The notes under the pieces were generated by a model that made no database searches, was not told the origin of the DNA, and saw only the letters and a list, made by a program, of their open reading frames with translations. DNA of 64,000 nt from Candidatus Methanomethylophilaceae archaeon (lineage in GTDB: Archaea; Thermoplasmatota; Thermoplasmata; Methanomassiliicoccales; Methanomethylophilaceae), in contig CALUHR010000013.1 of assembly GCA_944320495.1 (NCBI GenBank), forward strand, positions 128,001 to 192,000, read 5' to 3'. This document shows positions 5,562 to 62,222 of this stretch, one piece after another. Made by a program: the position numbers and the translations under genes. Numbering within the stretch: the stretch's first letter is position 1; every line of letters starts with the position of its first letter.

Positions 5562-6002
5562 TCGCTCTCCCTCGAGCACCTTCCTGGCCCTGGCGTACTT
5601 CTCCCTCCAGTGCAGGATCCTCTCCTCCGACACGTCCGGGCATCCCGAGAAGCGCGTCTCATCGGAATTGTGGTCCATGTCCGCCCTCTTCACGGCCCTG
5701 GCCACGGGGTTCTCCCTCACAGCCCTGACATAGTCGAGATAATCCACATCCCTCCCGTGCGTCAGCAGACGGACGGCGTCCACCACCTCCTTGGGAAACT
5801 CCCTCTCCAGGTCCTCGAACGTCACGTCCGTGTCCTCCACCACGTCGTGCAGCAGCGCCACGCATGTCGTGACCTCGTCGGTCATCTGCTCCGCCACGTG
5901 GAACGGATGGAACACGTACGGCACGCCCGTCTCGTCGAACTGTCCGTGGTGGGCCTCGTAGGCGATGCGCATGGCCTTCCTGGTGAGCGGCGTGTAGATC
6001 AT
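5562..6002 (-). CDS. HD-domain protein, (p)ppGpp hydrolase/Mesh1-like; ends at CGA 5562-5564 (standard-code end 5532)
   Basis: AHHGQ, PYVFHP, ALLHDVVEDT, VKRADMDHN motifs. Confidence 0.88.
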
Positions 6003-6041
6003 ATGACGGACATGGTGCGGATGGTATTTCCAGACAGCGCC

Positions 6042-6728
6042 TCATGCCTCCGCCAGCCTCTCCCTCGCCTCGGCGAAGGGATCGAACCTCACCAGCTCGA
6101 ACCCGACCCTGCGGTTCACCGCACCGATCTCGCCCCTGCACTCCCTCAGGTCCGCGCTGGACGCTCTGGACAGCATGCCGAAGAACCTAGCGTAGAAGAC
6201 GTCCAGCATGCCGCGGTACGTCACCAGCAGCCCCTCCAGGTCCGCCGAGCGGAGGTACCTCCGCTGGTCGGCGCTCCACATCTGGTCGGAACCGCACCTG
6301 CGGGTGAAGACCACCGCCCCTGTCCCCGGATCCACCTCCAAGGGCATCATGTCGACGTGCACCACGTAGTTCCTCAGATTGACCATCAGGGACGCCTCGA
6401 ATCCGAGGGACGACCTCTTGAGGTCCCGGAACTCCGCATCGACGCCGCAGCGCTTGGCGCTGACCGCCGCCAGGTTCTTGCAGGCGTACATCCTCGACAG
6501 GAAATCCGAGAGCGTCTGGCACAGTTCCATGGTGGACGATTCGAGGTCCCGGTAGCTGCTCCTCCCGGACCGTCCCGGTGACCTCATGGATGAGACGAGA
6601 CCGATGAGCTCCGACAGCTTGGAGTCCATCATGCCGTAGCACATGGACATCCTGCGGATGACCTCGTACGTTCTGAAGCTGCTCGATTCCCTGAGCCTCC
6701 TGAGTTCGACGGCGGGTTCCGAGGGCAT
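6042..6728 (-). CDS. Hypothetical helical protein with HEPN-like RxxxxH motif
   Basis: 228-aa ORF, host-like GC3, LRNYVVH motif. Confidence 0.6.
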   Translation of the reverse strand: MPSEPAVELRRLRESSSFRTYEVIRRMSMCYGMMDSKLSELIGLVSSMRSPGRSGRSSYRDLESSTMELCQTLSDFLSRMYACKNLAAVSAKRCGVDAEFRDLKRSSLGFEASLMVNLRNYVVHVDMMPLEVDPGTGAVVFTRRCGSDQMWSADQRRYLRSADLEGLLVTYRGMLDVFYARFFGMLSRASSADLRECRGEIGAVNRRVGFELVRFDPFAEARERLAEA

Positions 6729-6779
6729 GCGGATGAATCGCGGGCGGCCGTTATGAGCGTTGGCGACGTAGATTCCGTA
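6717..6779 (+). repeat. Left copy of 63-bp direct repeat flanking the island
   Basis: TTCCGAGGGCATGCGGATGAATCGCGGGCGGCCGTTATGAGCGTTGGCGACGTAGATTCCGTA; 59/63 identical to 21063-21125. Confidence 0.92.
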
Positions 6780-7003
6780 GGTCTAGTGGGATGACGTATG
6801 GTCGCCTGAAATCCCCGATCCTGCCCTCCAGCAGACTAGTTATCGTCAATGCACGGCCGAATTTGAGGTACATGAGGACACCGTCACAGCCCTATGGCGC
6901 CAGCTCAAGCTTGCCTGTATATTTTGATTATACCGACATGATGCCGCCATAACCTGGATACGGACCATGCCAGAATCATGAATCGTTAATGAAGTCCCTG
7001 CCA

Positions 7004-8104
7004 TCATGATAAACAGAGAGATAGGGTGAAAAACAGAACCAATGTGATCATGAACGACGCCGAGTTGCAGAGAACTATCTCAAAAACACTGCGATATTGG
7101 TATTCGGAGTACAGGAACTGCTTGAAAATCAAGGAGATCCTGCGCCGTTTAATGCATTGGACTGTACAACCTATATCCTCCACATAAGAAAGAAGAGCAA
7201 TAGTCAGTTCGCTTAAACCAGAGATTTTGCGGAAACGAACTAATGTCTCAAGGAGAACAGACAGAGTGAAATCCGATATCACAGCCAAGAATGCAATCAT
7301 GACGCAGAGTGGATCCGATGTCGCAAAAGACAGGATTGCACCTAACACCATCAATAGGATGTGTACGGGGACCTTGTTTATCCTGGGAATTGTTTTGTTC
7401 GGGTACTTTGATATGAGCTTGGCATCGGCCTTCCCGTAATTGTATAGTCTCCCAATCACGTCCCTCGGGTTGTCCCATGTTTTGTTTGAGTGGTATACTA
7501 TGGCATGACGGGCAGATGCTATGGTATATCCCGCCTCGTTCAACCTGACGCCTATATCGACGTCCTCCCCTCCCGGCTTATTCGGAAACGATTCATCGAA
7601 ACCTCCTATCTCCTCCAGGACCGCCTTTCTTATGGAAAAATTCGCAGTAGGGCCCCAAGGCACGGCGTCAACCTCGTTGGGGAGGGAAAATGCAATCATC
7701 CAGGGAGATCCACGAATTGTCCTGAAGAATCTGGTGTTCTCACCCTCCAATGTAATTGGCCCGCATGCGGCACCGATGTGACTCCCCTCGTATGAGGTCC
7801 AATGCGCCATTATCGCCCTTTTATCTAGAACACAGTCGGAGTCACAGTAGTATAGGAGCTCATACTTGGCATATTTCGCCGCAAGATTGCGCTTGATGGC
7901 CACCGACTCTCTTGCATAGTAATACCTGTACCCGAATTCCGAACACATCGATTCAATGATTCTAGCATCGTTCGTTTTGGAATTGTCTACGACAACGACC
8001 TCCCACGGCATGTCCTTGTCTGCGTCTAGTATGCTTTCGAACAATCTCCTGAGAAGAGCTATGCGACCGCAACAAACCACTAGGATGCTCACTCCATCCA
8101 TCAT
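7004..8104 (-). CDS. GT2 glycosyltransferase with C-terminal TM helices
   Basis: VVVVDNS, YCDSDC (DxD), GGFDE, GGEDVDIGVRL. Confidence 0.9.
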   Translation of the reverse strand: MMDGVSILVVCCGRIALLRRLFESILDADKDMPWEVVVVDNSKTNDARIIESMCSEFGYRYYYARESVAIKRNLAAKYAKYELLYYCDSDCVLDKRAIMAHWTSYEGSHIGAACGPITLEGENTRFFRTIRGSPWMIAFSLPNEVDAVPWGPTANFSIRKAVLEEIGGFDESFPNKPGGEDVDIGVRLNEAGYTIASARHAIVYHSNKTWDNPRDVIGRLYNYGKADAKLISKYPNKTIPRINKVPVHILLMVLGAILSFATSDPLCVMIAFLAVISDFTLSVLLETLVRFRKISGLSELTIALLSYVEDIGCTVQCIKRRRISLIFKQFLYSEYQYRSVFEIVLCNSASFMITLVLFFTLSLCLS

Positions 8105-8105
8105 A

Positions 8106-9920
8106 TCACATCATGAAGACAAGTGCACAGATTACGAATGAAAACGAACCAAGAGCCATACTCAGGCATGTGCATACAGTTCTCCTGACAATCTCCTTCT
8201 CATCGAAAGAGTAGAGCCTCAGTCTGAGGATAGAATCCAATCCAAATCCACGCAGAAATCTAATCCTTGCAATTTTACAAGATAGATTGCGATACATGAT
8301 CAACACGCATACGATCCTTGTAACAACCAACAACAGGAGGGATGCTGATGCCCAAAGTCTGATAGCCCCGTCTGCAAGGATAAAAAGAGCCAGCAGAACA
8401 ACAGCAACGGACAGGAACGCTGGAAATCTGTGCAGAGAAACCTCTGGCACAGCCCTGCAGATGGATGCGGCCTGCATGCCCCATAGCCGCTCCACAGCCT
8501 TCTCATACTCCTGGGGAACTCCGATCAGTGATGCGCTTTTATCGGAGCAAATATGCCTCCATCCGCTTACTTTGGCAATAACGTCTAGAGGTGTGCCGAA
8601 TCCCGCTCTAAGAACGTCCTCGGTCCGAACTATGTAGAGCATCCCCGGCTTGTAGAATTCTTCCATCGACAAGGAAAGTGACTCAGATATATCCTGAAAA
8701 AAATGGGATGTATCCATCCGGAGAGTGAGTCTGGCACATTCCCCCTGTTCGATTGTAGAAAGTACGTCACTCGACCTGACAGAACATCTTAGGGGACTTA
8801 TCACCATCATGTCGCATTTCAGAGATTCCAACGAGCGAATTGTCCCCTCGTCTGTCAGTTCAGGCTCCACTCCAACAAAGATACAACGTCCGATTCTGAG
8901 ACCGTTCTCATTGATGTAGCGATTCAGACGCCCGGAACGCCACATCATCATCGAAACCTTTGCATAACCTGCGACTGCAGAGAGTGCTTTGAAAAACGTG
9001 ACTGACCCGAATAGAAACACGGGAACCAAATATGCCGCCCAAATGGGATCGACATGAATCATGGAAACTAAAATCGCCAATGGAAGAAAAATTACGAAAG
9101 TTGGCGTCAGCGGAAGATAAGTATAATCGAAAAACGGCCACAAACCAGAACGCACGATGGCGCGAAGGGTGAACAGCTCAACCGCCAGCGAGGTCATGAG
9201 AATGACGAGATTGATTGGCCACCCTGACGTTGGCAGAATCATCACAATGCATGATGTCGCCAACCATTCCACGACTATGCATATGTAGATTCCCCGTTTG
9301 GAAGCGATCTGATGAGTGCCGAAGAAAGTTTTCGTTTTTGAAGCAACATCGTTGTCATGGTCCATCGACTGGTGTATGAGGATGTAACGGACTCCCAGAG
9401 CAAAACCCAGGATCATCGTCGCCGAAAATATCACCGGATTCACCGGGATCATGAGAGGCAATACAGTCAATGGACTGCAGCGTTGGGCATATGACGAGAC
9501 AATGACCCCCATCAACCCACGCTCCTTGAAACGGATCGGCCTCAGAGAATATGACGTACTCAGGAATAGATTCGTAACAACGACGATGGTCATTGGTATG
9601 CTCGGAAAAACAAATATCGGAATCAAAACCGGAACTGTCGCTAACAAGAGACTGCAGTATCTAAAACACATCGATCTGGTCGAGAACATATTCGATTTAC
9701 CGACTGCACGATCCTGCTCCACGTCGCTGAAATCATTGGCGACATAACCCGAAATCATAATTGCGACAGAAAGAACTGAGAAACACACAAATGGCAGCAC
9801 GGACTCTTCCGGAGTCACTCCGGACACCAGAAAGACCGCGATTGCCCCCAGCATTAGGAATGGAATCTTGGATCCAGCCCAATCATCCATTCTTAAACTT
9901 CTGATTCTCATAGAAGTCAT
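8106..9920 (-). CDS. UbiA-family prenyltransferase with long C-terminal extension (start uncertain, 9890-9932)
   Basis: Multi-TM; Asp-rich motifs NDFSDVEQD and HQSMDHDND. Confidence 0.75.
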   Translation of the reverse strand: MTSMRIRSLRMDDWAGSKIPFLMLGAIAVFLVSGVTPEESVLPFVCFSVLSVAIMISGYVANDFSDVEQDRAVGKSNMFSTRSMCFRYCSLLLATVPVLIPIFVFPSIPMTIVVVTNLFLSTSYSLRPIRFKERGLMGVIVSSYAQRCSPLTVLPLMIPVNPVIFSATMILGFALGVRYILIHQSMDHDNDVASKTKTFFGTHQIASKRGIYICIVVEWLATSCIVMILPTSGWPINLVILMTSLAVELFTLRAIVRSGLWPFFDYTYLPLTPTFVIFLPLAILVSMIHVDPIWAAYLVPVFLFGSVTFFKALSAVAGYAKVSMMMWRSGRLNRYINENGLRIGRCIFVGVEPELTDEGTIRSLESLKCDMMVISPLRCSVRSSDVLSTIEQGECARLTLRMDTSHFFQDISESLSLSMEEFYKPGMLYIVRTEDVLRAGFGTPLDVIAKVSGWRHICSDKSASLIGVPQEYEKAVERLWGMQAASICRAVPEVSLHRFPAFLSVAVVLLALFILADGAIRLWASASLLLLVVTRIVCVLIMYRNLSCKIARIRFLRGFGLDSILRLRLYSFDEKEIVRRTVCTCLSMALGSFSFVICALVFMM

Positions 9921-11250
9921 CTGCTCTGTCAACCTTCAGAAGTTCCAGACCGTTGTTGGTGATGAACATGCAGTTGTCACAGATCCTAGGCAGCTTTCCA
10001 CTGAAGAACAGTTCCCTCAACCTTACGAGAGGATTCCCGTTCCACACCTCGGTGAAATCACGATCGAGATTGCCAACGTTATGAAGAACGTCTATGCAGC
10101 ATGCGATGACCTCTCCCTTTGCCGTGACCATGGAGGTGTCCCAGATCCGGTCGCAGATGCCGTTGCAAGTGCTTCTGGATTTCTGGGGATTCAGGTCAAA
10201 TCCGTACAAGCTCCATCTCTCGCTCATTGGCGAGCATCTATCTATCTGGCGCGGTGGATCCCACGGCTCCGAACCTATGCGTATAATGTCTAAATCGTAG
10301 TCTGAATCCGAAAGAGACAAGAAATAATCAGGATAGATCAGCTCTATGCCTACAGCTTCTGCTACCTGAATTGCACGTTTTAGATGCGTTTTTAGAGCTG
10401 ATGGATACAGCACAGGGTCATCATATTTGTTCAAAGCATTGTCATTGATTCCCACTCTTGTGAAAATAACCCGTTGGAATCCGTTCTCGACAGCGTATTC
10501 GACTATACGCTCTAACTCAGCGATGTTGTGTCTCATCACCACTGTCGCCAACGTCATGAACGTTTGTGGTGAAGCCGACCTAAACCGACGGATGTTTTCT
10601 GTCACACGCTCCAGGTTCAGACCCTTACGTATGATGGAGTACATCCTCGGATCTACAGAATCCAACGAAACCGTCAATGTTTCAAATAAATCATGATGAG
10701 CCAGCACTGCATCCGGAAGTATTGACATGTTCGTGTTTGTGGACACATGGATGTGATACTTGGAATACAGATCTAAACGGGAACCCAGAGCAGGATCCAT
10801 GAACGGCTCCCCATTGCCATGTAGGACAATAGTGCGAAGATATGGCATCACAGATTCGAGACACGATACGAAATCATCCGTGAGATGGGATGCCCCGATA
10901 TTACGACGATAGTAGTGTACACACATTATACACTCTGCATTGCAAAATGACGTGTGCTCCAACTGAAGGGTCATTGGATAATGGCGGAATACAGACCTGC
11001 CTTCGACCAGATCGTGGCAGGCAAGTGCCTCATTGAGATCTTTGACGGTGTCGTAATCACCTAGCTCAAGACACGACAAGATCGTAGATTCTATGGCATC
11101 GGCATCGGAGAGATCCACATTCACACGGCCGTTTTCATAAGCAATGGGCGATTGACCCCGACGTATCATATCTGGCAACCAGTCTTTCATTGATTCGTGA
11201 ACAGGCGATTGACAGGTCACTTCCTGGATGTCATTGCCCGAAGACACCAC
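9883..11250 (-). CDS. Radical SAM protein with SPASM/twitch domain
   Basis: CNAECIMC, GNGEPFM, STNTN, VSLDS; C-terminal CDRIW...GEVIACC...VGNL...CDNC. Confidence 0.92.
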   Translation of the reverse strand: MVSSGNDIQEVTCQSPVHESMKDWLPDMIRRGQSPIAYENGRVNVDLSDADAIESTILSCLELGDYDTVKDLNEALACHDLVEGRSVFRHYPMTLQLEHTSFCNAECIMCVHYYRRNIGASHLTDDFVSCLESVMPYLRTIVLHGNGEPFMDPALGSRLDLYSKYHIHVSTNTNMSILPDAVLAHHDLFETLTVSLDSVDPRMYSIIRKGLNLERVTENIRRFRSASPQTFMTLATVVMRHNIAELERIVEYAVENGFQRVIFTRVGINDNALNKYDDPVLYPSALKTHLKRAIQVAEAVGIELIYPDYFLSLSDSDYDLDIIRIGSEPWDPPRQIDRCSPMSERWSLYGFDLNPQKSRSTCNGICDRIWDTSMVTAKGEVIACCIDVLHNVGNLDRDFTEVWNGNPLVRLRELFFSGKLPRICDNCMFITNNGLELLKVDRADDFYENQKFKNG

Positions 11251-11251
11251 A

Positions 11252-12121
11252 TCACACCCACAGATGCTGAGGGTAGGTTCCTTTCACCTTCTCTTCGTTA
11301 ATATGCTTCAAAAGAGCATCGTAATCATCGCGATACGTAACTCCCATCCATGATGCGTTCGTATCCACACAGTTCATCTTGATCTCCCCCAGAGATAGCA
11401 ACGAATCCAGAACAGTGGATAGCACGAACTCCTGTCCATCCTGCTCGTGATCCTTGATGAACATCTGAAGCCTCTGCCTTAACATAGTGAAAATCGAGGG
11501 ATTGAGCACGAACAGGTTCATGGAGACTGGATTACTCTCGCATATGCGCATTACTTTATCTGAATTCAAAGGACGACAAGCAATTCCATCCGAATCGACC
11601 CACACTTCCGACTCGATGATCCTGCGAATATGGCCGGAGTCTACCTTGCAAATGCCACGTTTCACCGTCCCGTGTGGAGAGAGTGTATTTCCGACTCTGT
11701 AGCATATGCAGCCACATTCTCCACTGCCTGAAAGCGGAGAGTTGAGCATTCCGGTAATAAGGGCACCCCTACCATAGAAATCATCAGCATTGACGACCAG
11801 AAACGGCTCCTCCAGGTGTCCTTCGCAGCAGAGAAGGGCAAATCCGGTACCAGATGGCAATACATGAACAGACATCTCATTTTCAGGATATTCCTGAATG
11901 ACGAATTCCAATGGAATCCTGGCACCAATTCTCGCCTTCAGAGCCTCGAAGAACTTCAGATGGCTCTTTTGAATAACTATGATGACTTTGCTGTAACCGC
12001 AAAGAATTGCATCATATATGGAATAGTCGATTAAGAAATTCCCGTCATCATCAACTGGTTCATACTGCTTCAACCCCCCGTATCTCTTACCGAGGCCGGC
12101 TGCCAGTATCACCATTTGCAT
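11252..12121 (-). CDS. Sugar-phosphate nucleotidyltransferase
   Basis: LAAGLGKRYGGLKQ, VVNADDFYG, WMGVTY. Confidence 0.88.
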   Translation of the reverse strand: MQMVILAAGLGKRYGGLKQYEPVDDDGNFLIDYSIYDAILCGYSKVIIVIQKSHLKFFEALKARIGARIPLEFVIQEYPENEMSVHVLPSGTGFALLCCEGHLEEPFLVVNADDFYGRGALITGMLNSPLSGSGECGCICYRVGNTLSPHGTVKRGICKVDSGHIRRIIESEVWVDSDGIACRPLNSDKVMRICESNPVSMNLFVLNPSIFTMLRQRLQMFIKDHEQDGQEFVLSTVLDSLLSLGEIKMNCVDTNASWMGVTYRDDYDALLKHINEEKVKGTYPQHLWV

Positions 12122-12231
12122 AATTGGGACATTGACGTACCATTATTAATTTTAACTATTTTAGTATAAATTCAATTTTGAATTTGATAATAATATTTAA
12201 GACCATTATCCAGATTGAACTATGAACGGTT
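12122..12231. promoter_or_regulatory. Divergent AT-rich promoter region with perfect 8-bp inverted repeat
   Basis: AAATTCAA-tt-TTGAATTT at 12168-12185; TATA-like TATTTAAG about 30 nt before ATG 12232. Confidence 0.6.
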
Positions 12232-13545
12232 ATGAAGACTGTGAGCGAGACCAAGATCGGATTCGTCGGACTGGGATACGTCGGCACGGTGAGTGCTGCA
12301 GGTTTCGCGATTCTGGGATTTGATGTTTACGGATACGATCTGGATGAAAGGAAAGTGACCAGTCTTATAAACAGACAGCCGCTCATCTACGAATCTGGAC
12401 TCCAGGAAGTTCTGTTAGACGCCGATATTTCATCAAGAATGCATTTCGTGTATGATATCGACAACCTGGTTGATAATGCGGACGTCATCTTCGTAACAGT
12501 TGGGACACCGGAATCTATTGACGGCTCCTGCAACACATCTTTTGTCACACAAGCTCTTGAATCCATACTGTCACGTCTCACAGAGAGAGGTCTGGACAGC
12601 ATTGTTGTGGTAAAAAGCACCGTGCCCGTAGGATTCACACAAGAATTCATCGATTCTCTTGGAAACGACGAAGGAATCTGTCGGAACATATGCTTCAGTC
12701 CAGAATTTCTCAGAGAAGGATCCGCTCTAGATGACTTTCTCAATCCGAGCAGGGTGGTGATTGGCACAACTGATGCAAGCATTTTCGAGACTGTTGCCCA
12801 CCTATACGGAAAATATGAATCGAAAGGAGTTCCGATTCTAATGATGGATCCGACCTCTGCCGAGCTAGTGAAGTATGCCTCTAACTCGTTTCTGGCAGCG
12901 AAGGTCGCTCTGATTAATGAATTCGCTGACCTTTCTCACGCTGTTGGTGCGAACATTGATACCGTGTCGAGAGCGATAGGAATGGACCCACGGATCGGTA
13001 ACGAGTTCATGCGCGCATCGGTCGGATTCGGTGGGAGTTGCTTTCCGAAAGATGTGTCTGAGATTGACCATAGATCCAATAGTCTTGGAATACGCCACCC
13101 CCTCATCGGCTCAATTCTTGAATCAAACAGAGCCCACATAGAGAGGATGACGGATCGCATTGACAGATGTGCGAAACATCAAGGAATCAGAACGATTTCA
13201 ATCCTGGGCCTGGCTTTCAAACCTGACTCGGATGATATCCGCGAATCCCCTGCCATTGAAATCGCATCGAAACTTCTTGAAAGAGGATATGTTGTGAAAG
13301 CATACGACCCACTGGCAGGACCCAATGCACTTCTAGCCCTGCCAAAGGGGATTGAGATACTCGACAATGCATACGACTGCATGAATGAGGCGGAGATGGT
13401 AACCATCCTAACGGGATGGCGTTCCTTCAGAGAGCTAAAATTCTGCAGGTCTGGAAGTGTGCGGATCGTTATGGATCTCGCCAATGTCCTGGACGGTGAA
13501 ACGATCGGTGCCATGGGGCTCGAATACCACAATATAACGGAGTGA
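12232..13545 (+). CDS. ugd: UDP-glucose 6-dehydrogenase
   Basis: GLGYVG, VGTP, KSTVP, PEFLREG, KYASN, GFGGSCFPKD, LGLAFKPDSDDIRESP. Confidence 0.95.
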   Translation: MKTVSETKIGFVGLGYVGTVSAAGFAILGFDVYGYDLDERKVTSLINRQPLIYESGLQEVLLDADISSRMHFVYDIDNLVDNADVIFVTVGTPESIDGSCNTSFVTQALESILSRLTERGLDSIVVVKSTVPVGFTQEFIDSLGNDEGICRNICFSPEFLREGSALDDFLNPSRVVIGTTDASIFETVAHLYGKYESKGVPILMMDPTSAELVKYASNSFLAAKVALINEFADLSHAVGANIDTVSRAIGMDPRIGNEFMRASVGFGGSCFPKDVSEIDHRSNSLGIRHPLIGSILESNRAHIERMTDRIDRCAKHQGIRTISILGLAFKPDSDDIRESPAIEIASKLLERGYVVKAYDPLAGPNALLALPKGIEILDNAYDCMNEAEMVTILTGWRSFRELKFCRSGSVRIVMDLANVLDGETIGAMGLEYHNITE

Positions 13546-14678
13546 CGAATACGACCGTTGACTTCTCCATCGTCATACCCACATGGAACAGAAAGGAGTA
13601 CGTTGAACGTCTCCTGAAATCCATCGCAGAGGACAGACAATCCTACACGGGCGGCTCTACAGAGATAATAATCGTAGACAGTAGCGTGGATGAGGAACGC
13701 GACTCCATAATGGAATCCTGCAAAAGGTATGGTGCACGCTATATTGAAGGGCCCGACTCTGTGAGGAAAAAACGCAACATGGGAATCGTGGATTCGCGGT
13801 TCGACCATATCCTCTTCCTAGACTCAGACGTCATAGTGGAGAAGGGACTTCTGGAAGCGCACGCCAGAGTGTACGAAGAGTCCCCATCAGAGAATCTTGG
13901 AGGCACATTCGGCGTAACCGAATTCTATGGAGAAAGGTCATTCATCTGGAAAGTTGTCGAATACACGAACTACACTGTTGCGTTCGATCAGGCTAAGAAA
14001 TACCCCTATGTGAACTGGACGATTGGAAACAACGTTTCTTTCGTAAAGAAATGTCTCGTAGACATAGGTATGTTCGAAGAAAACCTGCCGTTTAAGCTTG
14101 GAGGAGATGATCTCGATCTAAGCTATCGGGTAGTCGCCAGCGGGCATCCGATCAAATGTACGTCAGAGGCAGTGACATATCATTCTCGTGAAACATGGAA
14201 TTCCAGAGATGCCATCAATAACAGGACGAAGAGATGGGGTGCGATGGAGTACTACAACTCGAAACGTCACTGGAATTTGATGAAGAAGACCCTCCCCGGG
14301 CTTCCGATCATGTTCTCTATGGCAACACTGTCCCTTTTGATATCATTCCTAATAACAGAATCAACAGCGTTTCTATGGTCTATCCCTGTGATCGGTATTC
14401 TGACGTTCATAATCGGTTTTGCCTGTGATGCTACTAACAGCCACAGATACAATATCATATACTATGGATTAGCGAAACTCCTCGGTGTAAAATACAGCTA
14501 TTACAAAATCAAAGAGTGCTGGCACAATCATGACTTCGGGCTGATTGGAAGAGTCATGATCTTTGACAAAGGACATGCCATGGCCGAATATTCTGCGAGA
14601 AGCCGTAAAATGGACTGGTTCCTGATATCGTCCGTAGCAGTATTCCTCATAGATTTCCTACTTACAAGGATGGGTTGA
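13542..14678 (+). CDS. GT2 glycosyltransferase with C-terminal TM helices
   Basis: SIVIPTWNR, IIIVDS, FLDSDV, GGDDLDLSYR. Confidence 0.9.
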   Translation: MTNTTVDFSIVIPTWNRKEYVERLLKSIAEDRQSYTGGSTEIIIVDSSVDEERDSIMESCKRYGARYIEGPDSVRKKRNMGIVDSRFDHILFLDSDVIVEKGLLEAHARVYEESPSENLGGTFGVTEFYGERSFIWKVVEYTNYTVAFDQAKKYPYVNWTIGNNVSFVKKCLVDIGMFEENLPFKLGGDDLDLSYRVVASGHPIKCTSEAVTYHSRETWNSRDAINNRTKRWGAMEYYNSKRHWNLMKKTLPGLPIMFSMATLSLLISFLITESTAFLWSIPVIGILTFIIGFACDATNSHRYNIIYYGLAKLLGVKYSYYKIKECWHNHDFGLIGRVMIFDKGHAMAEYSARSRKMDWFLISSVAVFLIDFLLTRMG

Positions 14679-14682
14679 CTCC

Positions 14683-15789
14683 ATGGACTTCAGTGTCGTT
14701 ATACCGGCCCGCGGTCGCACGGATCTCCTCAGAACACTGCTGGAGAGCCTGAATACCGCCAGGGGTTTCAATGACGGTGATGTGGAAATCCTGATTCTAG
14801 ACGATAGCGACGAACCGTATTCGACAGCGATCAAATCCATGTCTACAGGACTCGGTGCAAGCTATATTCGTGCTGAAATGACAGTGGGTGCTAAGAGAAA
14901 TCTCGGTGCCAGAATGTCAAATCACGACATCGTTGTTTTTCTTGATTCAGATGTTCGTGTGTCCGATAATTTCTTCTGCGGATATGAAAGGGTTTTCGCC
15001 GCCAAGGAGATCAACATGGCGATAGGACTTTTGGAGTTCTATGGCGACGAGAGCTGGTACTGGAAGGTTGTCAAGTCCACCCCGTTCGTAAAATGTTTTG
15101 ACATGCCACGGTACATGGACATGCTCCCATGGGGATGTTCCTGCAACATGGCAGTCCGGAGAGACTTCTTCCTTGAACTATCCGGATTCAGCGATGAATT
15201 CCGCGAACCGGCAGGAGAGGATGTTGATCTAGGCCTTAGGGTTAGCAAGCGCCACATTCCAATAGTCCCAGTCAAAGAATCGGTGGCGTTCCATTCCAAC
15301 ACCACCTGGTCAAAGAGACGGGACATGATCCGTCGTGTTTGCATGTACGGGAGAGGGGATGCAGTCCTTGTTGAACGCCATCCTGACTCGACGGTGAGAT
15401 CGGGCCTCCGCCGTTGGATCTTTTTCCTCGCTATCACCATAATCTGCTGTCTTTCGGCAATCGTTTCTGAAAATGCCTGGATGCTTCTGATGATACCGAC
15501 ACTCATTGTTGCCGAACTCCTCGCTGTATCTGCCAAGATATCGGTAAAAACTGAAGATGTTAGCCTGTGTCAGGCACTGGCATCCCAAGAGCTGGTGCTA
15601 CGCAATGAGCTGTCATACATCTTGACCTGCATATCAAGAGGACATCCGGGCAACGTCTTCAGACAGATCGTCACCGTTGAGGGACAGGCATATGACATCT
15701 TGGATTTCATGAGATTCGCCTACCTATTGGACCTTGGTCTGCTGATGCTCCTCTTCATATTCTCGGGATTGGTGATAACATATGCATGA
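14683..15789 (+). CDS. GT2 glycosyltransferase with C-terminal TM helices
   Basis: SVVIPARGR, LILDD, FLDSDV, AGEDVDLGLR. Confidence 0.9.
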   Translation: MDFSVVIPARGRTDLLRTLLESLNTARGFNDGDVEILILDDSDEPYSTAIKSMSTGLGASYIRAEMTVGAKRNLGARMSNHDIVVFLDSDVRVSDNFFCGYERVFAAKEINMAIGLLEFYGDESWYWKVVKSTPFVKCFDMPRYMDMLPWGCSCNMAVRRDFFLELSGFSDEFREPAGEDVDLGLRVSKRHIPIVPVKESVAFHSNTTWSKRRDMIRRVCMYGRGDAVLVERHPDSTVRSGLRRWIFFLAITIICCLSAIVSENAWMLLMIPTLIVAELLAVSAKISVKTEDVSLCQALASQELVLRNELSYILTCISRGHPGNVFRQIVTVEGQAYDILDFMRFAYLLDLGLLMLLFIFSGLVITYA

Positions 15790-16972
15790 AGAACAGATGA
15801 AAAAATTCCTCCAGTGCGTAAAGTCGGGTTATTTCAACAATCCTGTCACCATAGAACGTGTAGAACCGTTGAAAGGTCTGTCAGAGCTGTCATATGACGA
15901 CTTTTGTCACATCCCGGTAATGACGAAGAGCGACATAAGATCGACATCCATCGAAACACGCGAACTCGAAAGCGGAAGATGCGTCGGCATATTCTCCAGC
16001 AGCGGATCCACCGGCAAGAGGACATATTATAAGTTCAGCCAAGAGGACCAGGATGTCTTCAATGAGACTGCCAGAGAGCTGTTCGGCAGACTCGGCGTGA
16101 ATTCCGACGATGTCTTCGCTGTTTGTGCCCCCGTAGGGGAGGGGATAATGGCCCACTGCATGATATGGGAGGCCATTGCCAACTGCTCGGGGTATACTGT
16201 ATGCCCAACCCCATCGCCTTCGAATGTGATGGAAATGTTGGACAACATCCCTGTAACGATAATAGCGGGATTGCCGTCTGTCTTGGACTTCTCGCTTGAA
16301 TCAGAGAAGGGGACACAGAGCCATAAGACGCATCTTCGCATGATGATCTCTGGCGGGCACTATATGTCCGAAGCGAAGCGCGATCGCATCGAGTCAGTCT
16401 GGGGGATAGAATGGTACAATGCGTATGGAATCAGCGAATTCTTCGGTCCGTTGATGTGCGAGTGCCGCTGTAAAAACGGATTCCATTACAACCAGAAATG
16501 TCTCTTCGTCGAAATTGTAGATGTCCATTCCAAAGAACCTATCGAGGGACCGGGGAAAATCGGCATAATGTTGCTCACACCTCTATGGAAGAAAGGATCC
16601 CCTCTGATCAGATACTGGACTGACGACTACGCCGAATGGATAGACGAACCCTGTACTTGCGGTGCATTCGGACGCAGAATCAGGATACTTGGCAGACAAT
16701 GTGATGTGATTTGCATCAATGGGAGATACATCTTCCCCAACGACATCGAAGAGATTCTCGTCAGGAACAGCAGAAACACCTTGGCATACTTCGACATCGA
16801 AGATGATGATATCGTCTGCTTCCTCCCGGAAATTAACGGATCATGCGGAGAGCTTGAGAGACTCTTTGACACAGAGATTCACTTCAAAACAAAGAGCGAA
16901 TGGCCCAATATCAACCGCCCGAAGCCATATTACTTCAGCAAAACATTGAAACAGAGGCTGAGTGACAGATGA
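15782..16972 (+). CDS. PaaK/F390-synthetase-like adenylate-forming ligase
   Basis: SSSGSTGK loop, YNAYGISE, PLIRYWTDD, ILGRQCD. Confidence 0.88.
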   Translation: MHEEQMKKFLQCVKSGYFNNPVTIERVEPLKGLSELSYDDFCHIPVMTKSDIRSTSIETRELESGRCVGIFSSSGSTGKRTYYKFSQEDQDVFNETARELFGRLGVNSDDVFAVCAPVGEGIMAHCMIWEAIANCSGYTVCPTPSPSNVMEMLDNIPVTIIAGLPSVLDFSLESEKGTQSHKTHLRMMISGGHYMSEAKRDRIESVWGIEWYNAYGISEFFGPLMCECRCKNGFHYNQKCLFVEIVDVHSKEPIEGPGKIGIMLLTPLWKKGSPLIRYWTDDYAEWIDEPCTCGAFGRRIRILGRQCDVICINGRYIFPNDIEEILVRNSRNTLAYFDIEDDDIVCFLPEINGSCGELERLFDTEIHFKTKSEWPNINRPKPYYFSKTLKQRLSDR

Positions 16973-17892: not shown

Positions 17893-17896
17893 TTCG

Positions 17897-20993: not shown

Positions 20994-21062
20994 TTCGATG
21001 TCCCATCCATAACAAGAGTGGAACAGGTTGAGATTCAATGGCATATGAACCTCAATTCGAAA

Positions 21063-52815: not shown

Positions 52816-54345
52816 TCGCAGGTCCTTCGCCATGTACGGCAGGTCGTACCCGTATCCGAGGGACGCGTAGTATCTCCTGACGCCCACCCCGCTCGTGACC
52901 CTGATCCTGCCGTACCCGCGCTCCCTTGCGAGGTCCTCGGCCCTGGCGACCAGCTCGCGGCCGAACCCGCGGTGCTGCCACTCCCCCTCGTCGCCAATCG
53001 ACGCGGCCTTCCCGAAGACCTTCAGCTCGCGGATGGTCGCGTTGGCGTCGAGCCTCAGGCGGGCGTATCCGATCAGGGAGTCCCTGTACTCGTAGGTGAT
53101 GAACAGCTCCGTGCCGCCGCAGGCCTCGTACTCGATCACCTTCGGCTCGGCGTCCGCCGGGTCCCTCAGGACCACGCCGGTGTGGCCGACCTCCCTGCAG
53201 CGGATGCACCTGCACGGGCGGCCCTCCGCACGCATGCGGTCCTCGACGAGCTGGCGGATGTTGCTGGTGGTTATGCCCGCGGCGATCTGCGGCGCGGGAA
53301 TGTCCCTCTGGATGCGCTGGATGCGCACGTACTCGGGGACGACGGACTTCATGTCGGCCAGCAGGCGGACGGCGGTCTCGGTGTCGTACGGCTCGTATTC
53401 CCCGGCCCTCCACATATCGTAGAGGCCGGTGCCATCGATCACGAGGGTCGTGTAGAACTTGAGCATGTCCGGACGGTACGCGGGGTCGTCGAACACCCTC
53501 CTGAAGCATTCCAGGTCGTGCTCCGGCGACGATCCCGGCAGTCCGGGCATGATGTGGTAGCAGACCTTCAGGCCGTGCTCCCTGCACTCGCGGGTACACC
53601 TGCGGACCTCTTCGGTCCCGTGGCCCCTGTCCACCCCCCTGAGTATGTCGTCATCGAGAATCTGCACGCCGAGCTCCACCCTTGTGGCCCCCAAGGCCAT
53701 GGCGCGCTCGATCTGCTCCGCCCCGAACACGTCCGGGCGGGTCTCGACGGTGAGCCCGACGCACCTGTGAGCGGAGGTCTCGTTCAGACGCTGCGCCTCC
53801 TCCAGCGTCCCCGAGTCGGTACCGTTCATGGCGTCGAAGCACCTGCGCACGAACCACTCCTGATAGTCGGCGTCGCGGCTGGTGAAGGTCCCGCCCATGA
53901 CGATGAGGTCGATCTTGTCGGTCGGATGGCCGATGTCCGTGAGCTGGCGTATGCGGTCGGTCACCTGCAGGAAGGGGTCGAAGTCGTTCCTTCCCGCGCG
54001 GCGTGCGGCCGGCTCCTTGCCCGTGTAGGACTGCGGGGAGCAGTTGCCCACCCCTCCGGGGCAGTAGGTGCACCTGCCGTGGGGGCAGTCGTGAGGAGAC
54101 GTCATCACGGCGACTACGGCCACGCCGGACATCGTGCGCATGGGCTTCTTGACCAGGAGCGGCAGCAGGAGGTCCCTGTCCTCCTCGCGGACGTTCGCCA
54201 GGATGCTGGAGTTGGGGGGCACGCCGGCGAGTCCGTACCTCTTGCAGAGCTTCAGCTTGAGGTTCTGCAGCTGGTCCCTGTCGCGGACGGTCCCGTCCCT
54301 CACCGCCTGGATGAGGTCGGCGGAGAGCTGTGAGACGTCATCCAT
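52816..54345 (-). CDS. elp3: Elp3 tRNA U34 acetyltransferase (radical SAM + GNAT); ends at CGA 52816-52818 (standard-code end 52723)
   Basis: CPHGRCTYCPGG, MGGTF, ETRPD, RIQRDIP, CRCIRCRE, WQHRGFG, YMAKDL. Confidence 0.95.
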
Positions 54346-54592: not shown

Positions 54593-54594
54593 GA

Positions 54595-56897: not shown

Positions 56898-57479
56898 TCG
56901 GAGGATGTGCGTGCGCCTGGCGAGCTCCAGGTCCGGCATCTCCCCGATCCTGCGGGGGATGACGTCGAGGTTCTCGCCGTACAGCTCGGAGAGCTCCCAG
57001 TGAAGGGCCTCGACCCTGTCCGCGCCGCGGTCGGCGCCCTTGGAGCGGAGCTTCGACACGGAGTGCTCGTGGGAGACCACGCGGTTGTCGCTCACCATGT
57101 TGTCCGCATGGGCGACGATCTTCTCCTCGATGGTCCGGGGCATGTAGTCCGCCGGCGGGAGGCCCATCTCCGCCACGTCCTCGTCGTCCAGACCGGCGCC
57201 CGTGTGCTTGCGGACGATGTCCACCAGCGCGGGCGACAGCCCGTGCGCGGCGACGATCTGGGAGCCTATGTACGCGTGCATTATCGAATGGTCCACGGAG
57301 CGTCCGATGTCGTGGAGCAACGCCCCTGCCGTCACCAGGGCCCTGTCGGCGTCGATGCGCGTGAGCATCTCCTGCGCCACGGCGTTCACCGTGCAGCAGT
57401 GGATGATGACCCTGCGCTTGCATCCGGCGTCCTTCAGGAGCTCGATGCACTCCGCATCGCTGGGGATCGTGCTCGACAA
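56898..57479 (-). CDS. HDIG-type HD-domain protein (TTG start); ends at CGA 56898-56900 (standard-code end 56886)
   Basis: IIHC, LLHDIGR, KHTGAG, EEKIVAHAD. Confidence 0.85.
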
Positions 57480-57987
57480 CGGTCTTCCCCCTCTCGTTCG
57501 GGACCACCTCGAGGTGGCCCCCGCGGTCCTCGTAGAGGGCCTTCCCCTCTGTGAAGCGGTCCAGGAAGATTGCCAGCGCCGCTATCTCCGAGTGCGGCTG
57601 GTTGCCCACGGAGACGTTGAAATCCGCGCGCTGGTACACCTCGGCGGGCACCTTCTCGGCACCCACGACTATGAGTATGTCCTCGTCCCGCGGGATCTTG
57701 GGCAACGCCTCGTCGACCCTCTGCCCGTACATGGTCAGATGGACGACCTTCCCGGGGAAGTCCTTGATCTCCTGCTTCCAGGAGACCCCGGTCTTTATGG
57801 TGTAGTCCCCGCCGAACCTCTCCACGACGCTGCGGATGTTCTCCTCCAGCACCGGGTCCTCCGTGTCCACGAATATGCCTTTGGCACCGAGTGCGCGGGA
57901 GCTCAGGGCCACATGGGTGGTGACCCTCTTGTCCCGCTCCGGACGGTGGCCGATCCTCATTATCCAGATTCCGGCCAAATCCGTCAC
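57457..57987 (-). CDS. trm56: tRNA (cytidine-56-2'-O)-methyltransferase, 176 aa; ends at CGA 57457-57459 (standard-code end 56821)
   Basis: RIGHRPERDKRVTTHVAL, HLTMYG, VGAEKVP, VGNQPHSEIAALAIFLDR. Confidence 0.94.
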
Positions 57988-59209: not shown

Positions 59210-59303
59210 ACCTGGACTCCATCGGCTGCCCACAGTGCGGGCACATGGAGAACGGCATTATGTCCGATATCTCCGCGCCGCAGAACTCGCACCTGTCGCT
59301 CAT
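59136..59303 (-). CDS. Small double-Zn-ribbon protein (3' end uncertain)
   Basis: AGGAGG then MSDRCEFCGAEIS...CPHCGQPM; 74-nt convergent overlap with the wHTH gene unexplained. Confidence 0.45.
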   Translation of the reverse strand: MSDRCEFCGAEISDIMPFSMCPHCGQPMESRFSGEHPSEGRLSRPASSRIRPWRP

Positions 59304-59823
59304 CGCCCCTCCTCCCGAACACGCTGACGAAGCGCTCCGCACATCCTGGATCCGCCGGGACGGCGGACCTGAAGCGGATCGTGTCCAGCGCCTCCACATA
59401 GTACGGCCGGAGATCCGCGCTGGCACTGACCCTCGGTCCCATGGGCCCGCGCTCCGACAGCACCTAGAAGAACCCGTCGGTGGCCATGCCGCGGGGCGTC
59501 CCGTGCCCGCGCATGAAGGCCATGACCTGCCGCAGGGGATCGTCCACGGGACGGTTCATCGGGACCATCGCGAGGATCGTGCCATCGTATCCGCCCAGAC
59601 CGTCGAGGCAGTACTCCGGGTCGCCGTAGCCGATTCCGCGCATCACCGGCATCACCAGCGTGCGCTTGGTCAGCTCGTACGGGGACTCGAACCCGGCCAG
59701 CCCCTTGAAGCCGGGAGTGAAACGGCCGGACACGGCCGCCCCGCACATCCTGACGCCCATGGAGCGGTCCAGCTCGCGCACCGCACCCATGCACACCTCC
59801 GACAGTGGATTCCCGTGGATCAT
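59296..59823 (-). CDS. Hypothetical protein with in-frame TAG (59464-59466) and CGA end (59296-59298)
   Basis: ORFs 59464-59823 and 59125-59463 abut in one frame with continuous GC3 bias; the CGA overlaps the next ATG by 8 nt. Confidence 0.55.
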
Positions 59824-60221: not shown

Positions 60222-60272
60222 GCCCTTTTATATAGCGTCAAAAATCGTTCGGACATCCAGGAGACCGTACCC

Positions 60273-61037
60273 ATGACCGGAACCTGCACCATCGTGATCC
60301 CGACGTACAACGAGGAGCGGAACATAGCGAACATAGCCAGGGCCATACGCGAGGCGTACCCCGACTACAGGATCCTCTTCATGGACGACAACTCCACGGA
60401 CAGGAGCCGCCAGGAGGTCGAGGCCCTGAACGACCCGCTCGTGACGTTCTACGTCCGCGACCCGGATGCCAGGGGGCTCGGTGCGTCCGTCCTCCAGGGT
60501 TTCGCGCTGGCGCAGACCGACTACGCCATGTGCATGGACTGCGACTTCCAGCACCCTGTGTCCGCGCTCGGAGGCCTCGTCGCCGAGATGGACAAGGGCG
60601 CTGACATCTGCGTCGGGCAGAGGAACAGCAGGATGTCCATGGGTTTCAAGAGGGCCATGGGGTCCGAGGTCGTCGAGGCGTTCTGCAAGGTCCAGTTCTG
60701 GGTGCACGGGAAGCAGACCACCAAGGACATGATGAGCGGGCTGTTCGCGCTCAGGTGCGATGTGTTCAGGCCAATCATCGAGAACAACTGGGACCAGTTC
60801 GAGCTCCGCGGATGGAAGGTCCTGATGGACCTGCTCAAGTTCGCCGACCGCAGGATGAGCGTCTCCTACTACAGATACGACTTCGGCACCCGCGCGGAGG
60901 GCGAGTCCCACCTCAACCCGAAGGTCCCGATCATGACCTTCCACCAGCTCTGGGGGTTCGGGAAGTGGTGCGCCAGGGTCGTCGCCAAGATCTACGGCGT
61001 GGACTACTACGAGATGTACCCCGCCGAGAGGAGACGA
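60273..61037 (+). CDS. Dolichol-phosphate glycosyltransferase (DPM1/AglD-like GT2); ends at CGA 61035-61037 (standard-code end 61052)
   Basis: IVIPTYNE, DDNSTD, MDCDFQHP, RAEGESHL. Confidence 0.88.
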
Positions 61038-61801
61038 TGTTCGCCGATGTGAACGGCATATCCCTCCGCTACGAGGTGAGGGGTTCCGGGGAGCCCGTGG
61101 TGCTCCTCGGGGGATTCGGCGCGAACGCGGGGTTCTGGGAGCCGATGCTCGGGGATCTGGACGGCTTCCGCATCATCACCATGGACAACCGCGGGGTCGG
61201 GAGCACGCGGTACGACGGAGAATTCTCGATATCCGACATGGCGGACGACGTCGACGCGCTCCTTGAACGTCTCGATGTCGGGGATGCGCACATTCTCGGA
61301 TGGTCCATGGGGTCCCAGATCGCCCAGTGCATAGCGGTACGGCATCCGGACAGGGTGAGGACGCTGACGCTCGTTTCCTCGTATCTCGGATTCCCCGCGA
61401 GGGCGGATTACATCCTCCTCGGTCTGACTCGCATGGCGCTCGAGGGCACGGCGCCGGAGGACTGCCTGGCGATGGCCGTGAACGCCCTGTGTCTCCCGGA
61501 GTCTACGTTCGAGGAGCTGAGGCGGAAGGGACTGGAGATGCCCGTGCCCGAGGACATGGAAGGCCCCGAGGGACTGATGGACCAGCTGGACGCCATGAGG
61601 GCGTACTCCGGCGAGGGACTGGAGAGCATCTCCATCCCCGCACTCGTGATCCATGGGAGAAGGGACGCCATGATCGAACCGGACAACGGCGCGGCGGTGG
61701 CGTCGAGGATCCGCGGGAGCGAGCTCCTCATGGTGGATGCGGGCCACAGCGTCCCGTTCGGGATGTACCGCGACAGGTTCCTGGGATTCATCGGCCAGCG
61801 A
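61037..61801 (+). CDS. Alpha/beta hydrolase; ends at CGA 61799-61801 (standard-code end 61933)
   Basis: DNRGVG, GWSMG nucleophile elbow, GRRD, AGHS. Confidence 0.9.
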
Positions 61802-61805
61802 CGGT

Positions 61806-62222
61806 TCGGAGCCTCTTCCGCATCATCACGTGCGGACAGTACTCGTCGAGGTACTCGTCGCCGAACGCCTCGTACCCCAGCGTTTCGTAGAACCCCTTTG
61901 CGCGGACCTGAGCGGAGAGCAGCGATTCCCTGAACCCCATGGACCGGGCCACGTCCTCGGCCTCGGTCACCACCGCAGAGCCTATGCCCCTGCCGCGGTA
62001 CTCCCTGACCACGGCGATCCTGCCTATGTGGCATTCGCCGCCCTCTCCGGGGATGATGCGGCAGACAGCGACGGGGACGTCTCCGTCATAGAGTACGATG
62101 TGCTTCGAGATCGCGTCGTCATCGTCGAACTCGACCACGAAGCCCTGCTCCTCGACGAATACGTCGGTGCGTATGCGGACCTCGTCGTCGGAGATCGAAT
62201 CGGACACGACCGGGCGGAGCAT
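61806..62222 (-). CDS. GNAT acetyltransferase (ElaA/YjcF-like); ends at CGA 61806-61808 (standard-code end 61788)
   Basis: IRTDVFVEEQG, IGRIAVVREYRGRGIG, SAQVRAKGFYETLGY, PHVMMRK. Confidence 0.92.

Follow-up and report, generated by a model that had tools for sequence, protein, structure and literature searches.

Evidence for CGA as a probable termination codon in a gut methanogen of the Methanomethylophilaceae

CGA at gene ends in the window

The first-pass annotation of a 64,000-nucleotide stretch of archaeal DNA (hereafter the window) proposed that 16 of its genes end at CGA, a triplet that the standard code reads as arginine. Is CGA a stop codon in this organism, and what would terminate translation there? 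We addressed this in the window, in the genome that contains it (1.77 Mb, Methanomethylophilaceae), and in related genomes; the host genus comprises 62 species, the record "Ca. Methanoprimaticola sp. MG2" among them. All 16 sites proved to carry CGA, in the frame and on the strand of the named gene.

In all 15 window genes assigned to a family, the Pfam domains stop ahead of the CGA, often at the final profile position, and no Pfam domain was found in the post-CGA tails of the window's genes. The full profile ends before the CGA in trm56 (57457–57978, minus strand; CGA at 57457–57459, codon 174; Trm56 119/119, to residue 168), whose 211-codon tail contains no domain and has a GC3 of 0.41; in a DUF357 gene (46272–46574, plus; CGA at 46572–46574, codon 101; 73/73, to residue 87); in a DUF167 gene (49633–49932, minus; CGA at 49633–49635; 76/76, to residue 84), which has a 94-codon tail with GC3 0.43; in elp3 (52816–54345, minus; CGA at 52816–52818; GNAT domain 116/116); and in a GNAT acetyltransferase gene (61806–62222, minus; CGA at 61806–61808, codon 139; Acetyltransf_10 128/128, to residue 138). 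Similarly, the profile is covered to its end in truA (24443–25219, plus; CGA at 25217–25219; PseudoU_synth_1 108/108, to residue 225; GC3 0.91 in the body and 0.57 in the tail) and in a uxs-like UDP-sugar dehydratase/epimerase gene of a low-GC island (16969–17892, plus; CGA at 17890–17892, codon 308; GDP_Man_Dehyd 332/332, to residue 302), and nearly so in an alpha/beta hydrolase gene (61037–61801, plus; CGA at 61799–61801; 240/245, to residue 239).

A domain end is accompanied by a fall in GC3 in trmI (GCD14-type; 42844–43644, minus; CGA at 42844–42846), in coaBC (47424–48611, minus; CGA at 47424–47426; GC3 0.95 in the body, 0.45 in the tail), in a dolichol-phosphate mannosyltransferase-like GT2 gene (60273–61037, plus; CGA at 61035–61037), and in an HDIG gene (56898–57479, minus; CGA at 56898–56900), where the comparison with the sister species points the same way. 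An HD-domain gene with HD_4 in its body (5562–6002, minus; CGA at 5562–5564) drops from 0.89 to 0.33 over a 9-codon tail. Across the window, GC3 is 0.84–0.97 in the last 100 body codons of the high-GC genes and 0.28–0.78 in the tails. The decay of GC3 after CGA that had been described thus holds for 14 of the 16 genes. The tail of a radical SAM gene (32550–33608, plus; CGA at 33606–33608) is five codons long, too short to judge. In a GT2 glycosyltransferase gene (19677–20993, plus; CGA at 20991–20993, codon 439), with domains completed by residue 258, GC3 rises from 0.42 to 0.71; the 145-codon tail enters an opposite-strand frame (21149–22312), and this overlap may cause the rise. The latter gene is the least secure of the 16. 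A short hypothetical ORF without a family (59296–59463, minus; CGA at 59296–59298) is a weak case as well, with GC3 as its evidence.

CGA at orthologous stop positions

Comparison with congeners places CGA at positions where orthologs have standard stops and where protein families end, as expected of a codon reassigned to termination. At the exact stop positions of 15 CGA-ended genes of genome G000, congeners carry TGA 70 times, CGA 18 times and TAA six times. For the radical SAM gene the counts are TGA 21, TAA 1 and CGA 5; orthologs of truA have TAA or CGA, and the alpha/beta hydrolase gene has TGA in sister species G018. The stop position of elp3 is CGA in G000, G018, G014 and G002, TGA in G004, G013 and G006, and TAA in G001 and G005. 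The DNA downstream of elp3 is conserved between one CGA species and one TGA species, and identity of elp3 to G018 falls at the CGA from 0.96 to 0.27. More generally, identity with the sister species goes from 0.97 before CGA to 0.73 after it, and from 0.965 to 0.79 across TGA. Mismatches with the sister species are evenly distributed over the three codon positions in the post-CGA tails.

CGA is depleted inside genes genome-wide

Genome-wide, only 10 internal in-frame CGA codons are flanked by coding sequence on both sides, versus 464 CGG, 899 CGT and 943 AGA. Six of these mark the border of two distinct genes whose Pfam families differ; one lies in a conserved domain, that of the archaeal release factor aRF1, and three are candidates without a Pfam family. 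The claim that CGA is absent from coding bodies is therefore true within the window and needs amending genome-wide by this single conserved-domain exception and three further candidates. Counts from the middle third of 1012 high-GC3 ORFs are 29 for CGA, 237 for CGG, 396 for CGT and 411 for AGA, and per-decile counts of CGA fall to 4, 5 and 8 in deciles 5–7, against 60–130 for comparable codons. This scarcity is far beyond chance. Apart from aRF1, CGA has gone from conserved internal positions with its synonymous codons still in use, the other mark of a reassigned codon. Nor is the avoidance a by-product of GC3 bias, since the 47–50% GC island of the window (12 ORFs, ∼330 Arg codons, AGA being the commonest) also has zero CGA before the predicted ends.

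Out of frame, CGA is not avoided: there are 33,525 NNC|GA codon pairs, and 8,611 NCG|A pairs at 0.88–0.95 of expectation. The signal is therefore tied to the reading frame. This bears on a proposal that the code is standard and that C-to-U editing changes CGA to UGA in mRNA at gene ends, which would account for the interchange of CGA and TGA at orthologous stops. With out-of-frame CGA plentiful and barely avoided, however, the editor would have to sense the reading frame, and its action would destroy the CGA that aRF1 conserves for an essential Arg (see below). We know of no C-to-U editing of mRNA in archaea, and consider this explanation highly improbable.

Even less credible is that CGA is plain arginine followed by genuine C-terminal extensions, or that TGA was miscalled as CGA in assembly or base calling. 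The presence of a tRNA with a UCG anticodon would suit an arginine reading, but neither GC3 bias nor conservation nor codon-position structure is maintained in the tails, which lack domains and cross neighboring genes. An artifact, in turn, is unable to strip CGA from gene bodies, and the pattern is common to dozens of assemblies, among them single-contig genomes and one RefSeq record, that came from various studies and assemblers. Both versions are already contradicted. As a termination signal at gene ends, CGA is supported by the codon statistics, by the stops of orthologs, by where domains end and by the conservation lost after it. A free-living organism, this gut methanogen seems to have changed its genetic code by turning a sense codon into a stop.

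CGA as a seemingly weaker stop

When CGA was added as a fourth stop, our home-made gene caller found 1664 genes, compared with 1519 under three stops. These end in TGA (1183), CGA (409, to be read as an estimate), TAA (53) and TAG (19), so that CGA closes about a quarter of the genes, conserved housekeeping genes among them. The share of CGA-ended genes is 38% in the lowest quintile of codon bias and 6% in the highest, and a standard stop follows within five codons after 23% of CGA stops versus 16% of TGA stops. These figures suggest that CGA terminates less strongly than TGA.

A retained tRNA-Arg(UCG) with an abnormal anticodon arm

One suggestion had been that tRNA-Arg(UCG) is lost. On the contrary, its gene is present in the host genome, in 30 congeners in one search and in nine more in another. 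Its anticodon arm is abnormal across the genus, with a 31–39 mismatch (A.A, C.A or U.C) in one clade, in which the stems co-vary, and C33 in the other; in seven other genera sampled, tRNA-Arg(UCG) has U33 and a paired 31–39. Thus, where a reassigned codon might be expected to have its cognate tRNA lost or disabled, here the gene is kept with conserved and co-varying stems and an altered anticodon arm. We infer a weakened tRNA, by which CGA is probably still readable as Arg; the post-CGA tails may be translated at some rate. An unassigned codon, in turn, would be avoided everywhere, gene ends included, and would have no decoder; here CGA ends 409 genes and a UCG tRNA is present. That description fits Methanomethylophilus better (see below).

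aRF1 as the candidate agent

Saccharomyces cerevisiae eRF1 competes with tRNA-Arg for CGA and detectably terminates there, even when a lone CGA takes the place of the stop; the UGA-biased variants L123F/R/Y boost this termination (Wada and Ito 2018, PMC7379694). Such release is weak and incidental in yeast, where CGA is an ordinary Arg codon, whereas here it has apparently become the main reading of the codon. The aRF1 of the host has intact NIKS and YxCxxxF motifs and an Arg (Y-R-C) at the position aligned to yeast L123, a feature common to relatives with the standard code. Specific to the family are a Met in place of the Arg aligning with human eRF1 R68, four residues past NIKS, and differences in the residues flanking GGQ. 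No aRF1 substitution tracks the use of CGA stops within the genus.

The unchanged NIKS and YxCxxxF motifs would also agree with a mechanism that dispenses with codon recognition by aRF1, in which CGA is effectively unassigned and poorly decoded and the stalls are resolved by aPelota/ABCE1 and peptidyl-tRNA hydrolase, a stall at a gene end then serving to terminate the protein. The genus-wide abnormality of the tRNA anticodon arm and the avoidance of CGA stops in strongly codon-biased genes speak for such rescue as well. However, ribosome rescue alone does not hydrolyze peptidyl-tRNA, CGA stands at a quarter of gene ends even in conserved housekeeping genes, and Methanomethylophilus purged CGA yet kept a canonical tRNA(UCG), which argues for a competitor rather than a missing decoder. 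Rescue also gives no reason for a conserved tRNA or for a CGA in aRF1 specifically, and we judge it improbable. Among the mechanisms put forward in the first-pass annotation, then, loss of the tRNA fell away, editing of every CGA is unlikely and rescue leaves features unexplained; recognition of CGA by aRF1 is still the best candidate.

Overall, we favor, with a probability of roughly 80%, a reading in which CGA is mainly a termination codon beside TGA, TAA and some TAG, probably through the single aRF1 in competition with a retained, weakened tRNA-Arg(UCG); the purge of CGA in the family and a feedback at Arg88 of aRF1 would belong to the same picture.

A conserved CGA within the aRF1 gene

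The sole CGA in any conserved domain genome-wide encodes Arg88 of aRF1 (codon 78 counting from the likely start, Met11). The genus has 46 distinct coding sequences of aRF1, and every one uses CGA at this site. Two lineages that lost it have another CGA in aRF1 instead, at residue 21 or at Arg35, and at least one CGA is found in 80 of 80 aRF1 genes of the family, often as the sole CGA among 3000–6000 aligned codons nearby. Sister genera, Methanomethylophilus included, have purged CGA almost fully and kept one in aRF1. Arg88 is not unique in its uniformity, given that four of the 16 invariant-Arg columns of aRF1 use a single codon.

If CGA is read as a stop by aRF1, full-length aRF1 would require the weak tRNA to win at Arg88. 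Such a competition would create negative feedback between CGA termination and read-through, comparable to that at the in-frame UGA of bacterial prfB. In prfB, which encodes RF2, the UGA is passed by a +1 frameshift. Common to both would be a conserved, early in-frame codon on which the encoded factor itself terminates (for aRF1, only if CGA is truly read as stop), with a full-length product that depends on the factor losing. Unlike in prfB, passage of the aRF1 CGA would be ordinary tRNA decoding, with no need of a frameshift or frameshift site. In a 2021 review of archaeal recoding, aRF1 and release-factor autoregulation are absent (PMC8211752). If true, the arrangement would be the first described instance of autoregulation by an archaeal release factor. 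More tentatively, and at somewhat less than even odds, CGA could have a dual meaning, being a stop for aRF1 at gene ends while the lineage retains tRNA-Arg(UCG), deliberately weakened, chiefly for the one CGA of aRF1, so that feedback holds the efficiency of CGA termination constant.

The CGA of aRF1 might instead be no sensor at all, and be either a tolerated relic or a point at which the gene is split into two polypeptides, which we regard as rather unlikely. The codons of R60, R172 and R196 of aRF1 are likewise invariant in the genus, and aRF1 genes in other families of the order carry one to four chance CGAs, as a relic would lead one to expect. Yet nearly all other in-body CGA has gone from ∼0.5 million codons while that of aRF1 was retained in every sequence, and where the Arg88 CGA was lost, another stands in the N-terminal part of the protein. 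As for a split, the first Met codon lies ∼27 residues past the CGA, and NIKS and YxCxxxF, which belong to one domain, would be parted.

Relation to known codes

The closest known codes include organellar ones: AGA/AGG in vertebrate mitochondria, UCA in Scenedesmus mitochondria and UUA in Thraustochytrium mitochondria (NCBI tables 2, 22 and 23). In these, too, a sense codon leaves gene bodies and turns up at gene ends, but their genomes are tiny, contain very few genes and lack the cognate tRNA, whereas here a free-living archaeon with ∼1,700 genes and ∼400 CGA ends keeps the tRNA. At human mitochondrial AGA/AGG ends, a −1 shift brings UAG into frame, which accounts for termination there. No such shift is possible at the host CGA, where a −1 shift gives NCG and a +1 shift GAN, never a stop. 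If true, the host would offer the first case of sense-to-stop reassignment in any cellular genome. In two hydrothermal-vent archaeal assemblies, CGG encodes Trp and conserved domains lack CGA; that preprint raises the possibility of CGA as a stop, with a method stated to be unable to infer stop codons (Melnykov 2026, 10.64898/2026.04.02.715157). Those assemblies have ∼50% GC, no tRNA-UCG was found in them and CGG is reassigned; in our host CGG aligns to Arg/Lys, the tRNA is present, and orthologous stops were tested.

Inferred history within the family

Other families of the order have CGA at Arg positions. Among 93,983 aligned codons of Methanomethylophilus, four are CGA, and CGA stands at two of ∼160 gene ends; the tRNA(UCG) of that genus is canonical. 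CGA can therefore be avoided without being widely used as a stop, and the two are separable. A plausible course of events is that CGA first became a contested codon in the family and was purged from genes, that the present genus further altered the tRNA anticodon arm (by the 31–39 mismatch or C33, according to clade), and that its GC-rich members came to hold CGA at stop positions where relatives have TGA or TAA. That GC pressure drove the replacement of TGA by CGA is a guess.

In codon capture (Osawa–Jukes), a codon vanishes and later returns with a new meaning, and in the position-dependent ambiguous codes of some ciliates and trypanosomatids a single codon ends genes and, inside them, encodes an amino acid. 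The present case would differ from these in its direction, from sense to stop, in concerning a prokaryote, and in having living intermediate lineages such as Methanomethylophilus, where CGA is almost unused. If true, stages of codon capture would be displayed within one family: CGA as Arg in Methanoplasma, hardly any CGA in Methanomethylophilus, and CGA as stop in this genus.

Gene ends at CGA in the window

On the grounds of comparative genomics, we suggest that the arginine codon CGA serves as a fourth stop in the genus (62 species; family Methanomethylophilaceae, order Methanomassiliicoccales) of the archaeon studied here (G000; 1.77 Mb in 14 contigs, 62% GC). A first-pass annotation had proposed this from 16 genes of the window (C13:128001-192000), and an in-frame CGA is indeed present at each of the 16 positions, on the strand described. 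The reported decay of third-position GC bias (GC3) in the tails, meaning the in-frame sequence between CGA and the next standard stop, was recovered in 14 of the 16 genes, but not in the 5-codon rSAM tail or in the GT2 tail. Pfam domains are borne by 15 of the genes and all finish upstream of CGA, in many cases on the final position of the profile; no tail of the 16 genes held a Pfam domain. The weakest cases are the GT2 gene (CGA at 20991) and a short hypothetical ORF (59296).

The same annotation had met no CGA in the coding bodies that it read codon by codon. This stands in the low-GC island of the window, which has none despite the frequency there of Arg codons ending in A, and where two genes terminate in CGA; genome-wide it has to be amended, since codon Arg88 of the archaeal release factor, aRF1, is CGA. 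The island itself (7000-21000; 47%-50% GC versus 62%-65% for the genome) carries approximately 12 sugar-modifying or glycosyltransferase genes. Its content resembles that of a surface-glycan gene cluster, and it was possibly acquired from elsewhere.

Depletion of CGA from reading frames

Across the genome, gene bodies are nearly free of CGA. Within 1012 high-GC3 stop-to-stop ORFs the codon is concentrated in the first and last deciles, with counts of 4, 5, and 8 in mid-ORF deciles versus 60-130 for CGG, CGT, AGA, and ACA. Among in-frame codons flanked on both sides by clear coding sequence, CGA (10) is scarcer even than TGA (59), compared with 464 CGG, 899 CGT, and 943 AGA. Six of these 10 CGAs are gene boundaries, with different Pfam families on either side, and three have no family. 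The boundaries are an FMN reductase pair, PdxT/Sel1, NifH-like/NifD-like, FAA hydrolase/PurS, and SIS/HAD, together with an ankyrin-repeat gene followed by sequence without a family. One apparent internal CGA, in the gene upstream of aRF1, proved to be a C-terminus displaced by one residue. A simple home-made gene caller returned 1664 genes when CGA was allowed as a fourth stop versus 1519 with three stops; the 1664 end in TGA (1183), CGA (409), TAA (53), or TAG (19), so that CGA accounts for ∼25% of gene ends genome-wide.

An assembly or base-calling artifact cannot purge a codon from gene bodies, and the pattern is common to dozens of assemblies. Out of frame, CGA is not avoided genome-wide, and the constraint must therefore act on the reading frame, i.e., at decoding. 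C-to-U editing of every CGA, which would create a standard stop at the RNA level, is unlikely for the same reason: CGA out of frame is abundant and barely avoided. Nor can a frameshift at CGA lead onto a standard stop, because the −1 codon is NCG and the +1 codon is GAN.

CGA looks like a weaker stop than TGA. Its share of gene ends is 38% in the lowest quintile of codon bias and 6% in the highest, and the next 5 codons contain a standard in-frame stop after 23% of CGA stops versus 16% of TGA stops (z ∼ 3). A strict sequence context was considered and discarded, given that we observed a mere preference (U as the +4 base at 54% of CGA stops; CGA-TG at 22%).

Orthologous stop positions

Directly past the last residue of elp3, we found CGA in G000, in its sister species G018, and in the genomes G014 and G002, TGA in G004, G013, and G006, and TAA in G001 and G005; the DNA downstream from this stop is preserved between one CGA species and one TGA species. 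The window hydrolase (CGA at 61799) likewise has TGA at the same position in G018. For 15 G000 genes ending in CGA, the corresponding congener positions hold TGA 70 times, TAA six times, and CGA 18 times, and the TGA-ending genes of G000 align to 374 TGA, 36 TAA, and seven CGA. Identity between G000 and G018 drops from 0.97 in the 45 nt upstream of CGA to 0.73 downstream, and around TGA from 0.965 to 0.79. When tail mismatches between these two genomes were sorted by codon position, no third-position excess was seen. Loci of the rpoB region were uninformative on the status of CGA between species, since the genes there are highly expressed and contain hardly any CGG either. In other families of Methanomassiliicoccales, CGA occurs at Arg positions at ordinary frequency.

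A deviant but maintained tRNA-Arg(UCG)

The first-pass annotation had listed loss of tRNA-Arg(UCG) as a possible cause, but a tRNA search found the gene in G000 (C13:413317-413390, outside the window; locus L124), along with Arg tRNAs carrying the anticodons CCG, GCG, UCU, and CCU. This tRNA has an A31.A39 mismatch, and its U32 and C38 are confined to G000's species and the sister species. Throughout the genus's GC-rich clade, residues 31 and 39 are never paired (A.A, C.A, or U.C), while the remaining four stem pairs covary, and this covariation points to selection on the gene. Members of the lower-GC clade carry C in place of the universal U33. Both features are canonical in seven other genera sampled, with U33 and pairing between 31 and 39. 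Loss of the gene in the lower-GC clade was also entertained, as BLAST with the G000 tRNA found no homolog there; however, a listing of 44 tRNAs from one complete genome includes it, with C33. Judging from these sequences, the 31-39 mismatch and C33 may weaken decoding by tRNA-Arg(UCG).

The release factor and its internal CGA

G000 carries one aRF1 (C2:85936-87195, minus strand, outside the window; locus L074:679-1941) and one Pelota-like gene. The aRF1 motifs NIKS and YxCxxxF are intact, the first x of the latter being Arg. Across the family, the position aligned with human R68 is Met, where other Methanomassiliicoccales, Halobacterium, Aeropyrum, and human have Arg, and the GGQ motif is flanked as HQ-GGQ-SSV versus R/G-K/M-GGQ-SA-Q/L in other families (80 loci, L156-L235). 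We also noted, at residues 35-40 (GRSTEL), a Ser for Gly at the position aligned with G31 of the GTS loop of human eRF1; it is present in G000's species and G018 only, all relatives having Gly. Within the genus, no aRF1 substitution was found to track the use of CGA stops.

The CGA at Arg88 (IAA-R-LKTY, 17 residues past NIKS, aligned with human R81) is the sole CGA of G000 within a conserved domain. It is shared by 46 of 46 distinct coding sequences of this gene in the genus, while adjacent synonymous sites vary. Since four of the 16 invariant-Arg columns of aRF1 show a single codon, invariance is not peculiar to Arg88, and what counts is that the codon there is CGA. Two lineages (81% identity) that lost it have CGA at residue 21 or Arg35 instead. 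Indeed, all 80 aRF1 genes of the family (68%-100% identity) contain at least one in-frame CGA, usually exactly one, at 88, 35, 21, 60, or 133, and in many genomes this is the lone CGA among 3000-6000 aligned codons nearby.

Wild-type yeast eRF1 already releases peptides at one CGA placed as the stop, where it competes with tRNA-Arg, and the L123R mutant, a UGA-biased factor, terminates more strongly at CGA (PMC7379694). Yeast position 123 aligns with the Arg of YxCxxxF in aRF1, and we therefore favor aRF1 as the agent that would terminate at CGA, by analogy with the yeast factor. To this factor CGA would be a near-cognate of UGA, and tRNA-Arg(UCG) would be its weak competitor. The internal CGA may then form a candidate feedback loop, in which over-efficient termination at CGA would lower the production of aRF1 and too frequent read-through would raise it. 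The logic would be like that of prfB, although the mechanism differs; a 2021 review of archaeal recoding (PMC8211752) makes no mention of such release-factor feedback.

Stages within the family

In the genera g22 (one genome of 1,488,669 bp) and g27, CGA is a rare Arg codon within genes and is absent from ∼40 sampled gene ends. The aRF1 of g27 has CGA at Arg133 and Arg416, and its tRNA(UCG) is canonical. In g22 the aRF1 CGA is at Arg35; a pattern search did not find tRNA(UCG). Four complete Methanomethylophilus genomes have four in-gene CGAs in 93,983 aligned codons, two CGA ends among ∼160, a canonical tRNA(UCG), and a single aRF1 CGA, at Arg35. In one of this genus (G104, a single contig of 1,666,795 bp; loci L340, L341, and L362-L381) two genes apparently end in CGA, with tails of 2 and 9 codons. 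In G000's genus, in-gene CGA is essentially absent, tRNA(UCG) has the 31-39 mismatch or C33, and aRF1 retains one CGA, at Arg88; there CGA ends climb with GC content, from one of 61 below 55% GC to 22 of 219 at ≥59% (one neighborhood). The series fits codon capture, in which CGA would first have been avoided and later reused as a stop.

Relation to known codes

To our knowledge, organelles are the only accepted setting for sense-to-stop changes in the genetic code. If the present case is true, a free-living archaeal genus with an Arg codon as a stop would widen the known range of code evolution and display codon capture with living intermediate stages, and would suggest that the path taken was cross-reading of CGA and UGA by aRF1/eRF1. 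Annotation with table 11 would give false C-termini or fused genes for about a quarter of the proteins of these gut methanogens, and protein databases would be affected. Cultured strains appear to exist in or near the genus, so that the claim could be tested there directly. Methanomethylophilus, from which a widely used PylRS system derives, also shows CGA avoidance and CGA in aRF1.

We found no established archaeal sense-codon change in the literature, nor any paper describing a CGA stop from Methanomassiliicoccales. The nearest work is a 2026 preprint (10.64898/2026.04.02.715157), which proposes CGG-to-Trp in two unrelated archaea from vents and raises a CGA stop in them as a possibility, without a test. 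CGG does not follow that pattern in G000: the residues aligned with it are R in 29% of cases and K in 25%, and it is therefore not reassigned.

TAG and pyrrolysine

A PylS gene is present at C9:67854-68522 (260.8 bits, cut-off 178), and aragorn reported no tRNA-Pyl across the 14 contigs. In-frame TAG with coding sequence on both sides occurs 46 times genome-wide, compared with the 19 called genes that end in it. TAG is probably read in part as pyrrolysine, which, on top of CGA, would place two codons of this genome off the standard code.
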